A DNA stretch of 25,488 bases, taken from IMG/VR virus record IMGVR_UViG_3300036833_000331, positions 1 to 25,488 of that record. One strand, 5' to 3'. Shown one piece after another: positions 21,379 to 25,455 of this stretch. The notes beneath the pieces were generated by a model. It was not told the DNA's origin, made no database searches, and saw nothing but the letters and a program-made list of their open reading frames with translations. Numbering within the stretch: position 1 is the stretch's first letter; every line of letters starts with the position of its first letter. Made by a program: the position numbers and the translations under genes. The stretch is from a virus (Duplodnaviria; Caudoviricetes).

Positions 21379-21822
21379 ATGGCATCAGTTCCAGTTACGA
21401 TCATAGGCACAATGACCTATACCGACGTCGGTGTCGGCGGAGGTCCAATTATCGGAGGCGGCGGCCAACTTCCGGGCATTTGGCCCTCGCCGGGTGTCCC
21501 GACACCACCGATATATTATCCGCCGGGAATCTGGCCCTCGCCTGGCCATCCCGCGTTCCCCATTGCCGGACCTCCTCCGGGCATTTGGCCAAGTCCTGGC
21601 GTGCCGACACCACCGATATATTATCCGCCGATCCCGGCCCATCCCATAAGCCCAGGCGGGCCACCCTCGACACCTCCAGGGGGTGAGGACGCACCAAGCG
21701 GTGGTTGGGTCTGGAGTCCATTTTACGGCTGGTGCTGGCAACCAAGCTATGGACCGGGCAAGCCGCATCCGCCACAGCCACCTAATGAGGTTCCGCATCC
21801 CGAACACCCGATTGCGCCCTAA
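21379..21822 (+). CDS. Proline-rich repeat protein
   Basis: PGIWPSPG three times and PTPPIYYPP twice. 54-nt near-duplicate at 21472-21525 and 21577-21630. Confidence 0.7.
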
Positions 21823-21837
21823 AGCTTAAAATGGGAG

Positions 21838-21870
21838 AGGGCAGGTATCCATCAATGCCTGCCCTTTTTC
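21838..21870 (+). terminator. Rho-independent terminator
   Basis: AGGGCAGGTA-(TCCATCAA)-TGCCTGCCCT stem followed by TTTT. Confidence 0.7.
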
Positions 21871-21875
21871 TCGTT

Positions 21876-23810
21876 ATGAAATGGATTGCCCTTTGTCTGT
21901 TATTAGCTGTTAATGCCCTGGCTGCGGCCCCACCCGCAACTACCCAGATTGACTGGACTAGTACCGGTATCCCTGGCGGAATTCCGCATCGTTCGACCGT
22001 TTATAAAACCCTGAGTGCCAGCGATTACGGGAACGGAAGCTCTGACGCAACTAGTGCGATCCAAAACGCGCTCAATAGTTGTCCCGATAACCAAGTTGTT
22101 GCGCTTGGAAGCGGCAAATTTAAGATCGCTGGAAGTATCACGATTCCCGCTAACACGGTTTTAAGAGGCAACGGGAACGATACCGTTCTGGACGCTACCG
22201 GCCGCGCTAATGCGGTCATCGTTTTCGGCGGGACGCGCGCCCCGGACATAAACGCTTCGCAACCGATCACCAGCGGAGCAAACGCTGGCAGCACCACGAT
22301 TAATTTCAGTAAGGGCGCCTTGAAGGTCGGTGACCTGATTATGGTGACTGAACTCAATGATTCCAGTTACGTCTCCAAAACCGGAAACGAAGGCGATTGC
22401 AACTGGTGCGATGGCGGCTTGGGTTGGAACGGTACGCGGTTGGCGGGTCAGACGGTGCAGGTAACCGGGATCAATGGCAGCGCGGTCAGTATCAGTCCAG
22501 CCCTTTATAAGACCTACGCGCTCACGCCGCTGGCTACACCGTTTAGTCCCAATTGCGTCAATAGCGGGGTTGAGGATCTACAGCTCTATCTCAACAACTC
22601 TGGGTACAACGAAAACATTTTGCAGCAATGCGTTGCGAATTGCTGGGTCAAGAACATCGAGAGCAATTACGCCGACGGCGATCATTTTCAAGCGCATTGG
22701 TCAACGCGGGGCGAGATCCGTCATTGCAATTTTCATGACGGCTATTTGCACACCTCTGGCCAGACGGAGGCCGATCTGTTTCTAGCCGATAAGACAAGCG
22801 GATACCTCGTTATCGATAACATTTGCGTCCGCCAGCACGTCTCAGTTCTGCTTAATTGGGGAGCCAGCGGCAACGTCATTGCCTATAATTTCAGTCAAGG
22901 CGATTTTGATTCGGGTTCCTATAACGCTCTTTTCACTTTCGTCGGCATTCACGGCGCGCATCCGCAATTTAACCTGATCGAAGGCAACATCGGCCAGCAG
23001 CTCTATTTCGATAACGTCTGGGGTTCGGGCTCAAATAATACGGTGTTTCGAAACTGGATGAAAGGCGCGACTAAAGTTCAGAATCCGCTCAACGGTCGTG
23101 GAGATCCTACCGGTACGCCCTGGGAAGCTTGTCAGGCTGATCGTGCGATGCAGGTTAGCGATCAGCAAAACTACAATCAGTTCTTGGGCAACTTCGTCGG
23201 CAGCCCGCAATTATTGAATGTCACCAAATACAACGATGGAAGAAACAAACTGCCGTTTAAGGCCGAAGTCGTTGCTCCAGGTGACAGCCGCAGCTACGAT
23301 GCGGCGACCTACGGCTACACCTGGGGTTATACAAATCTGAGCGATGGCGGGGGCAAGGGAAGCAACAAGCCCAAGACGACGGCGAACATCAAAAATGAAG
23401 TGGTCTTTACTTCCGCTTCTCCTGCGGCGGTTTCAAACTCTTTGCCAGTCAGCCTCTTTCTCTCTAGTAAGCCATCGTGGTTTGGTCCATTGCCCTGGCC
23501 CCCTTTGGATGTAGCTATGCCGGCCCAGCTGGCCGACGAGAATATCCCGGCCGGCTACCGGTACAAGAACGGGCGCGATCCGGCGCCTGGACCTTCCCCA
23601 AGTCCGACCGCCAGTCCGACTCCAACGCCGACCCCTGTTCCAACGCCCAGCGCGACGCCGACGCCCGAGCCGACGCCGGCCCCATCCCCTAGCGCCACGC
23701 CAACTCCTGCGCCCACTCCTGCGCCCACTCCGGGTGGTGCCAATTTTTCAGATTGGCTGAACCAACTCTCGGATTGGATTCGAGAACATCCAGCTATTCC
23801 TAATCATTGA
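21876..23810 (+). CDS. Secreted right-handed beta-helix (pectate-lyase-3-like) protein with Pro/Thr linker
   Basis: Signal peptide [17 protein letters not shown] from ATG 21876, [13 protein letters not shown] and Asn-ladder repeats, (PT)n linker and short C-terminal helix. Confidence 0.8.
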
Positions 23811-23814
23811 GGTT

Positions 23815-24622
23815 TGGCTCGCTCAGGAACCTTGGGTTTCTCTCAGTCATTGGCTCGCTCTTTCAGGCTGGTTTTCTCACCTTTTTTGGCTCGCTCCTAC
23901 TTTGTGGATTTCTCCGCCCATCTGGCTCGCTCCAGGTCAATGGATTTCTCTGGCATTTGGCTCGCTATCATTGTGGCGGGTTTCTCTTTGACCTTGGCTC
24001 GCTCCTGTAACGTGGCGGTTCTCTCCAATTATGGCTCGCTGCTTTTCCATGGATTTCTCGTAGATCGTGGCTAGCGCTTCCGGGACATGGGTTTTATCAA
24101 CGATCATGGCTCGCTTGAGGCTCTTGGGCTATCTCGGGCTCCCTGGCTCGCTTTAGATCTCTGGGGTTTCTCTTAGCATTGACTCGCTCTTCGACCACGG
24201 GTTTCTCTCCGCTATTGGCTCGCTCCTTGTTCTTGGGTTTCTCCCTAAATATGGCTCGCTCTAGCGCTCAGGGTTTCTCCTTCATTATGGCTCGCTCTCA
24301 GGATCTGGGTTTCTCAAACCTGATGGCTCGCTACTGCAACGTGGGTTTTCTCGTCTCCTGTGGCTCGCTCTAGTCGCTTGGTTTTCTCCGTGACGATGGC
24401 TCGCTCTCACATCTTGGTTTTCTGACCCATGATGGCTCGCTCGGCTTCGGTGGTTTTCTCGAATCGGTTGGCTCGCTCGCCGGCCAAGGGTTTCTCCCCA
24501 TTCATGGCTCGCTCATATCTCGTGGGTTTCTCGTCAGATATGGCTCGATCACCTGCTTTGGTTTTCTCGGTGCCCTTGGCTCGCTCTTTGTGTTGGGGTT
24601 TCTCTCCTTGACTGGCTCAATC
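23815..24622 (-). repeat. TIGR (tandem interspaced guide RNA) dual-repeat array: 22 units of ~36 nt plus a terminal repeat
   Basis: Plus-strand TGGCTCGCT (or a close variant) starts at 23815, 23851, 23887, 23923, 23958, 23995, 24032, 24068, 24107, 24144, 24180, 24216, 24252, 24288, 24324, 24361, 24397, 24433, 24469, 24505, 24541, 24577 and 24613. Each full unit has a second repeat TGG(G/T/A)TTTCT midway and two unique ~9-nt segments. Confidence 0.93.
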
Positions 24623-25455
24623 ATTCCTGAGTGGTTGAGGATATCCTTCGCGTATGGGGCGCTCACCGGAAGCCCTCGCGCCTCGCGCGCCTTGACCCAA
24701 AGGTGGCTTAAAAACAATTTCACGGTTCGGCGCTTTGCCCTAGCGTGCAGATGCGCATCGGAGAGCTTGCCTTCCATGAGCCTCTTCTTGGTTGCGTTAT
24801 CATTCTTGAAAGTTTTGCCGACCAATTCACGCTTCGCCGCTTCCCGGTAAAAACCAGCTTCGTTCCTGTTGATTTCCTCCTTCTTGAATTGTGCGTACAG
24901 ATGCCCGTAAGTCGCACCATTCTTGCCGGACACTTTCACGAACGATTCGCCCAACTTGAAACACAAGACCTTCAGCCGCGCATTATAGGGAAGTTTGACC
25001 CCTTTTTGCCTTCGGTCGAAGCCGGGTGCCAGGCCTGCAAACTTCCATAAAGAGGAGACATGTTCCGCCCGCGTCACGTCGATGTGTGCTGCCAGGCCTG
25101 CGGCAATGATTGGCCCGATCCCTATCTGGCTATAGGCCCATTTGGCTTCCATCGGCGATTCCGCACTTTTGATCCAGTCAGCCAATTTCCCGTAGATGAC
25201 CCGTTCGCCGGCATTGAGCCAGTAATGGAACCATGAGCGCATTGGCAAGGCTTCAGCTTGTTCTGGAGTGACGACTTCTGTCGGTGCCGGTTCTTCAGGA
25301 TGTTCAGTACGGCGCTTGTTGGCCCAGCCGATTCGCAACTCTTGAGCGTCATAATACAGGGCCACCGTATCCGCGATTTCCGCGCTAGAGAGTTCGTGAC
25401 TCTTAACAATCTTGTCAATCAGCGCATTACGGATTTCTTTAGTTAATTTATCCAT
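24502..25455 (-). CDS. tasA: TIGR-associated Nop-domain protein, nuclease-less (TasA-type; IS110-related fold)
   Basis: GIGPIIAAGL helix-hairpin-helix, SSLWKFAGLAP, YNARLK and HARAKRRTVKLFLSHLW motifs of the IS110/Nop RNA-binding domain. No N-terminal DEDD RuvC and no HNH. Abuts a 36-nt dual-repeat array. Confidence 0.85.
   Translation of the reverse strand: MDKLTKEIRNALIDKIVKSHELSSAEIADTVALYYDAQELRIGWANKRRTEHPEEPAPTEVVTPEQAEALPMRSWFHYWLNAGERVIYGKLADWIKSAESPMEAKWAYSQIGIGPIIAAGLAAHIDVTRAEHVSSLWKFAGLAPGFDRRQKGVKLPYNARLKVLCFKLGESFVKVSGKNGATYGHLYAQFKKEEINRNEAGFYREAAKRELVGKTFKNDNATKKRLMEGKLSDAHLHARAKRRTVKLFLSHLWVKAREARGLPVSAPYAKDILNHSGMIEPVKERNPNTKSEPRAPRKPKQVIEPYLTRNPRDMSEP

Follow-up and report, generated by a model that had tools for sequence, protein, structure and literature searches.

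A constant G in the repeats of a viral dual-repeat TIGR array and the probable 16-bp geometry of its guides

The window, that is, the whole stretch of 25,488 bases that was analysed, is a linear virus record in which matches to major head and tail proteins, to a terminase and, weakly, to a portal protein were detected. It carries a tasA open reading frame (24502..25455, minus strand), called as 317 amino acids and coding for a Nop-domain protein without a nuclease, and, adjoining it on the same strand, a dual-repeat TIGR array (23815..24621, minus strand). The homology of the tasA frame stops near residue 281 and its last ~35 codons traverse the first array units, no stop occurring until about 110 bases into the array (24502-24621, minus strand); most of its relatives are 260-275 amino acids long, versus the 317 called in the window. 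A gene for a 659-aa pectate-lyase-like protein with a Pro/Thr-rich tail (21831-23810, plus strand) is convergent with the array and ends 5 bases away from it; neither a terminator-like site between the two, nor one directly behind the array, nor a promoter-like site for the array was found. Repeated segments of ~40-50 bases, noticed by eye, lie among overlapping short open reading frames at 21385-21700.

The tasA product matches TaTasR (E 1.7e-17) and SpTasH (E 2.5e-14), the latter match beginning after the HNH domain of SpTasH. Its structural model is all-helical (pLDDT 86) and contains neither an HNH nor a RuvC domain; since, in addition, all ten of its significant fold matches are Tas structures, the open reading frame is to be regarded as TasA. 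Residues Y268 and H275 align with the processing dyad Y289/H296 of SpTasH, H275 being invariant in 59 homologs, and the segment Y187-H235 (49 aa, helical in the model) corresponds to insertion 2. The protein has 881 relatives among 2226 candidates; the nearest genome-borne ones, in a Chthoniobacterales MAG (L165, 59%) and in an Acidobacteria MAG (L166, 56%), give a weak hint on the host range.

Along the array, edge repeats (23 copies; consensus AGCGAGCCA) and loop repeats (22 copies; consensus AGAAACCCA) follow one another in alternation and delimit 22 guide units with a period of 36 nt. The array agrees with the definition of dual-repeat arrays (two alternating 8-12-nt repeats, short spacers and 36-nt units) given in the available text of PMC12045711, where the 5' truncation of the first repeat, seen here at 24613..24621 (minus strand) within the tasA reading frame, is described as typical of TIGR arrays. 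Read with 10-nt repeats, the last edge repeat (23815..23824, minus strand) is composed of the fixed G, AG (box D), CGAG and CCA (box C), and the loop repeat at 23833..23842 (minus strand) of the fixed G, AG, AAAC and CCA; the last guide then has 8-nt spacers A (23843..23850, minus strand) and B (23825..23832, minus strand). With AG…CCA in both edge and loop repeats, box C and box D covary, and the interior of the edge repeat has complementary ends (C..G), that of the loop repeat being A..C. The original prediction that both repeats read AG-N4-CCA is right as to the motif, which is present in both, but overstates its last letter in the loop repeat, the final A being found in just 11 of the 20 regular units. 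Contigs of run X1 span the array with no differing letters; X1 may be the source sample, and thus this agreement is not independent. At 24252-24423, two short contigs of the same run, of low depth and maybe from another phage, join array positions with differing letters in between, and one of them reads as a different guide with the same grammar.

The counts that first drew attention to the base preceding the repeats, a G before 16 of the 22 edge repeats and 21 of the 22 loop repeats, hold, the aligner giving 17/22 for the edge repeat because it assigns another position to one copy that has a 2-nt insertion. When only the regular 9-nt intervals of the window are considered, G is found in 15/16 (edge) and 19/20 (loop), and five of the six edge exceptions come after irregular intervals. 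With G accounting for 0.296 of spacer positions 1-8, the probability of such a bias by chance is 4e-5 (edge) and 1e-10 (loop).

How far this grammar departs from that of known systems can be judged from the published repeats. The premise that characterised repeats begin with UG applies to TasR (UG…CCA) and not to SpTIGR and FpTIGR, which have AG at box D (Table S1, PMC12045711); hence AG…CCA, proposed as a motif variant, was already in print, and the same source, in the parts available, states that TIGR motifs diverge but covary. The arrangement in 10-nt repeats and 8-nt spacers, one of the two initially envisaged, is supported and coincides with that published for SpTIGR, for which the accessible parts of the reports describe 16 variable nt (PMC12045711), 8-bp heteroduplexes on an MM1-MM16 target (10.64898/2026.08.11.744272) and duplex DNA from position 17 on (PMC13421893). 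Upon alignment, the window edge repeat differs from that of SpTIGR only in its first base, G for A, the nine 3' bases being identical. Thus, both AG…CCA and the 10+8 layout are known and only the G for A differs, and even G-type repeats may already appear in fig. S4 of PMC12045711. The flagged grammar is an ordinary one: it is the layout of SpTIGR with G in place of A, and the family is catalogued. The array class of the window shares with SpTIGR 16 variable nt and, in edge and loop repeats alike, a fixed base ahead of box D.

The closest characterised system is therefore SpTIGR-TasH from Salicola phage CGphi29 (NC_020844; PDB 9W04; described in the available text of PMC12045711), which has in common with the window the 36-nt dual-repeat array, the AG…CCA boxes, the 8-nt spacers, the Y/H dyad and, ahead of box D in edge and loop repeats, a fixed purine; in NC_020844, as parsed here, A precedes AG in 9/11 edge and 9/10 loop repeats. 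The two Nop domains are 29% identical over 191 aa. However, the window has G rather than A at the first repeat base and another loop interior, its TasA is devoid of the HNH domain, and its insertion 2 (49 aa, helical in the model) differs from the 36-aa one of SpTasH, which includes a beta-hairpin. Close relatives from the window subclade belong to the Tas family node36549 of Faure et al., at least 19 rows of whose Table S1 carry a common C-terminal motif, three of them on contigs L087, L098 and L166; the N-terminus of the window TasA is not among the Table S1 rows listed, and no experiment on this family was found in the portions of the TIGR literature examined. FpTIGR-TasA (Flavonifractor plautii) and MbTasA, which represses transcription, are nuclease-less like the TasA of the window, and FpTIGR also has AG at box D, but with variable spacers of 9 nt. 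TaTIGR/ParTIGR-TasR (PDB 9MTY) share with the window the Nop fold, identical repeat interiors and the 36-nt period, and differ in the UG box D, the RuvC nuclease, the free ninth base and the 9-bp heteroduplexes formed on a designed 18-bp site. Lastly, the IS110 bridge RNA (IS621), according to the available text of PMC11208160, has two guides reading opposite strands, as in TIGR; IS110 recombinases and the window TasA have a related Nop-like RNA-binding domain (PF02371 below cutoff; weak fold match), the latter protein lacking the DEDD recombinase domain.

To place the constant G in a wider context, arrays were collected from the loci of three protein scans (80 of 226, 80 of 522, and 26 loci) and of two scans for repeat motifs (148 stretches found in 14 of the 64 parts, then 102), arrays being present in 123 of the 189 sources of the first locus set. 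The 282 non-redundant arrays comprise 157 with a fixed G at position 9, which is the commonest class, 14 with a fixed A, 29 with mixed purines and 82 with a free ninth base; since the protein scans favour the clade of the window and the motif scans demand the same edge core, these are not global frequencies, and since both arrays and proteins are related, the counts are not independent. The pooled position-9 table excludes L004, L147, L177, L179 and the window, the later statistics exclude L332, duplicate arrays and duplicate guides, and irregular intervals enter only the 10-nt-interval/coupling and the irregular-spacer/position-8-overlap tests. L332 is not a normal array, its spacers A and B being identical and its two repeats alike.

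Among these relatives, position 9 holds 1.4 bits versus 0.01 bits at position 8, with G at 0.89 of 1433 and 0.88 of 1418 and A at 0.09 and 0.11, respectively; its conservation within arrays (0.89) is similar to that of other repeat columns, and 99 of 115 arrays have a G/G majority. A fixed G also precedes TG repeats (19 arrays). In intervals of 10 nt, the G adjoins AG in 96/111 cases and sits at position 9 in 33/111. A point against a repeat base is that repeats next to each other share variants in this column no more often than expected (29 vs 28; 28 vs 27), unlike those of some internal repeat columns. Position 9 behaves as a repeat position across about 100 related loci, and we have little doubt that both 10-nt repeats start with the constant G. 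Several arrays (L022, L043, L061, L067, L071, L072, L079, L080 and others) have CCG as box C of edge and loop repeats alike, with the fixed G and the AG retained, and a further class is represented by L417, where pyrimidines, mostly T/T, make up almost all ninth bases of spacers A and B.

Mapping of the spacer pairs in the 8+8 and 9+9 geometries, the check that accompanied the original prediction, was carried out in the fetched loci (2.0 Mb and 3.4 Mb), where exact 16-nt targets were at the chance level at every gap, with 3 matches versus 2.2 expected; in the viral collection, each 16-nt pattern with a gap of 0-2 would, on estimate, produce chance matches by the tens. No credible self-target was found in the fetched loci, nor any natural target of the window guides in 3.4 Mb of them, where these guides gave six one-mismatch matches scattered over gaps -1 to 4. 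A single-sequence locus search gave no matches, and annotated phages gave two weak ones. At the E. coli wcaD site, spacer A forms, by eye, 6/9 Watson-Crick pairs in the overlap register and 4/9 in the 18-bp register, which wobble raises to 6-7, so that this site does not discriminate between registers. Palindromic targets were rejected, as in-register identity of A and B was not raised (209 vs 223), and a gap-0 excess for the purine/purine guides of free arrays (32 vs 18) was set aside because the junction scores gave it no backing. An overlap at position 8 was absent in the G class (321/1344) and with 10-nt spacers B (9/38), with a weak hint for 10-nt spacers A (25/69, p 0.025).

As direct searches remained at chance, we turned to the question of whether the spacers resemble natural DNA. 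For this, k-mer correlations were derived from the flanks with the arrays masked, and guides mispaired within an array served as control. In the G class (1668 guides from 141 G-fixed arrays), positions 5-8 follow on from the preceding letters as in natural DNA (z +3.2 to +5.5), but the ninth position fails to do so (z -0.4, +1.6); in free arrays (722 guides), the ninth position does as well (z +4.4, +3.8). When spacer A (positions 1-8) was joined to the reverse complement of spacer B (positions 1-8), the G class scored z +4.2 at gap 0 (0/2000 permutations), versus -0.3 at gap 1, +0.3 at gap 2 and +3.0 at gap 3; sixty pairings with other guides had a standard deviation of 0.95 and a maximum of +1.6, and splits inside a single spacer, taken as a benchmark, scored +4.6 to +6.1. 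A simulated gap-0 truth gave +8.5 with a codon echo of +3.7 at gap 3, and a simulated gap-3 truth +5.5 with +2.6 at gap 0, the observed gap-0 value being half of that simulated. The pooled gap-0 score was positive in both halves of the data (+3.7, +2.3), and one-mismatch matches of the G class were in excess solely at gap 0 (158 vs 128.8 expected, p 0.007), this being one of three such cells among the 36 tested. The window subclade (255 guides) scored +2.5 at gap 0, +2.6 at gap 3 and -1.1 at gap 1 at the junction, and +1.1 (gap 0) and +1.7 (gap 1) in the pooled score; the 15 guides of the window alone, too few to test the geometry, gave +1.1 at the gap-0 junction and pooled scores of +0.1 (gap 0) and +2.0 (gap 1). 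The A-fixed class (87 guides; gap 0 +1.7, GC centre +2.0) is too small to serve as a positive control.

Gap 0 is favoured clade-wide, and the statistics of the G class support a contiguous 8+8 site and reject a GC centre for the class; in fixed-G arrays, the site of a guide is probably 16 bp of contiguous DNA, and it is likely that its two halves were copied from one piece of natural DNA. Against this, across the edge repeat, the pooled score of the G class also links spacer B to spacer A of the next guide (+3.6 at gap 2, -2.8 at gap 0), and complementary stretches of at least 4 nt are slightly depleted there (114 vs 134).

A different picture emerges from the 82 arrays with a free ninth base (for example L257, L303, L373, L368 and L405). 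In these, the ninth base of spacer A (A9) is complementary to that of spacer B (B9) of the same guide in 311/768 cases, versus 204±10 expected, the excess being present both in the first set (192/521 vs 130) and in a later separate scan (119/247 vs 73) and above expectation in 51/62 arrays; adjacent guides gave no such signal (190/748 vs 197), nor did position 8. In the units listed in Table S1, the two bases are complementary, by eye, in 8/8 of ParTIGR and 3/6 of TaTIGR. Free arrays score best, although weakly, at gap 1 (+1.5 at the junction, +2.9 to +3.1 pooled), and their complementary guides have 33 gap-1 near-matches versus 20, whose centre matches in 10/34, the same share as in controls (6.6/23). 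This suggests that part of the free guides have 17-bp targets read with a 1-bp overlap. An overlap in about a fifth to a quarter of the free guides would, arithmetically, suffice for the counts, and the non-complementary guides keep natural ninth bases; free arrays are therefore probably mixed in geometry. In the available text of PMC12045711, Faure et al. saw no obvious covariation of A and B and tested a 1-bp-overlap substrate. The A9:B9 covariation appears unreported in the portions of the TIGR literature searched: it does not occur in the accessible parts of 10.64898/2026.09.09.750476, 10.64898/2026.07.30.739390, 10.64898/2026.07.15.738680 and 10.64898/2026.10.21.760802, and those of 10.64898/2026.07.30.739400 have no bearing on it.

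The covariation might also reflect the structure of the RNA rather than the target, the ninth bases of A and B pairing within the guide as G·G in the window, A·A in SpTIGR and Watson-Crick pairs in free arrays, an arrangement compatible with a 16-bp target in the window. The edge and loop bases do covary among arrays, with 123 G/G, 11 A/A and no G/A array in 208 scored, deviations from the fixed base are almost all purines, and in irregular free-array spacers complementarity tracks the last base (17/32). However, combinations of the G·U type are depleted (GT 0.53-0.69 and TG 0.46-0.74 of expected), the ninth bases of free arrays continue natural DNA, and a departure from G in one spacer of a guide does not go with a departure in the other (48 vs 42), so that we hold this explanation to be unlikely. 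Still less probable is an 8+1+8 arrangement in the G class, in which the site would measure 17 bp, like that of free arrays, and both Gs would face a single central base pair, the strand with the pyrimidine pairing with one of them; the A9:B9 complementarity of free arrays, the pooled gap-1 score of the window alone and the tolerance of TasR to gaps (according to the available text of PMC12045711) speak for it, whereas the gap-1 junction score of the G class is -0.3 against +6.0 in simulation, that of the subclade is negative too, and gap-1 near-matches are not in excess (122 vs 128.6). 

The other reading initially offered, in which 9-nt spacers address 18 bp of target whose central GC is fixed, as an IS110-like core or an acquisition bias, is very improbable. 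In its favour, it agrees formally with the G/G pattern, TasR uses all 9 nt for pairing on its 18-bp site (available text of PMC12045711), and GC occupies 15/133 centres of gap-2 near-matches (mostly chance hits). Against it, the GC-centre junction scores z +0.4 versus +9.3 simulated (or ~+4.5 if halved like gap 0), gap-2 near-matches are not enriched (132 vs 120.5), 3.4 Mb of fetched loci contain no exact GC-centred 9+9 match, and in free arrays the two ninth bases are identical less often than expected (z -3.5). Nor does the likeness to IS110 withstand scrutiny: the two base pairs of the IS110 core are covered by both guides, which overlap there (PMC11208160, in the text available). Where both spacers have G at position 9, an overlap of 2 bp would require each of them to have C at position 8; this is excluded, as C occupies that position in 413 (25%) and 360 (22%) of 1624 guides, and a 1-bp overlap would need G to be its own complement. 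Hence, the idea that the ninth base informs on acquisition is retained through the complementarity in free arrays and not through a central GC.

With good confidence, we interpret the locus as a dual-repeat TIGR array with a nuclease-less TasA, in which the G belongs to the repeat and the guides likely read 8+8 on a contiguous 16-bp site that would be blocked without being cut. By analogy with SpTasH, the array, presumably co-transcribed with tasA, would be processed by TasA itself, acting as a dimer, with Y268/H275 cutting midway along the edge repeat to give predicted 36-nt guides, of which spacer A would read one strand and spacer B the other strand of one site; the dimer would bind the 16 bp by two predicted 8-bp heteroduplexes, the constant G being held unpaired at the centre of the complex. 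Bound TasA might then act as a roadblock to transcription or replication, as for MbTasA and dead SpTasH, and a role in steric repression, most plausibly of competing mobile elements, is slightly favoured on these analogies. On a further proposal, for and against which we see equal chances, guides are captured from contiguous, largely coding natural DNA, and the geometry of each clade can be told from the base that precedes box D: 16 bp where the repeat supplies the ninth base (G/G or A/A) and insertion 2 is long, and 17 bp in part of the free guides, including ParTIGR, whose spacers would overlap on the central base pair. If this is true, the 18-bp sites of TasR engineering are not the natural geometry of many guides.

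These questions bear on spacer acquisition and on natural targets, both listed as open in the available text of the TIGRFinder preprint, and the part worth following is the geometry statistics, which come mostly from the related loci. The A9:B9 result offers a handle on the origin of TIGR spacers. The suggested geometries constrain any acquisition model and allow target searches to be narrowed, to 16 bp for fixed-base arrays and, for part of the free arrays, to 17 bp with overlapping spacers; engineers should keep the G as scaffold in this large TasA family.

A remaining point concerns what might set the length of pairing. Insertion 2, equated here with the segment aligned to Y187-H235, measures at least 30 aa in 105/106 fixed-base systems and less than 30 aa in 24/37 free ones, counts that are inflated by relatedness; this fits the earlier published hypothesis of insertion 2 as a ruler, according to which a long insertion may limit pairing to 8 bp. 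No single residue was found to separate fixed from free arrays beyond clade identity. The fixed G occurs on several branches of a quick tree, and the sequences of insertion 2 differ among the window clade, the SpTasH-like group and the cysteine-rich TG group. In seven TG-type arrays that lie beside a short TasA (L227, L245, L365, L379, L396, L413 and L414), the fixed G likely had a separate origin, and in five of these seven systems the long insertion 2 contains CxxC motifs.
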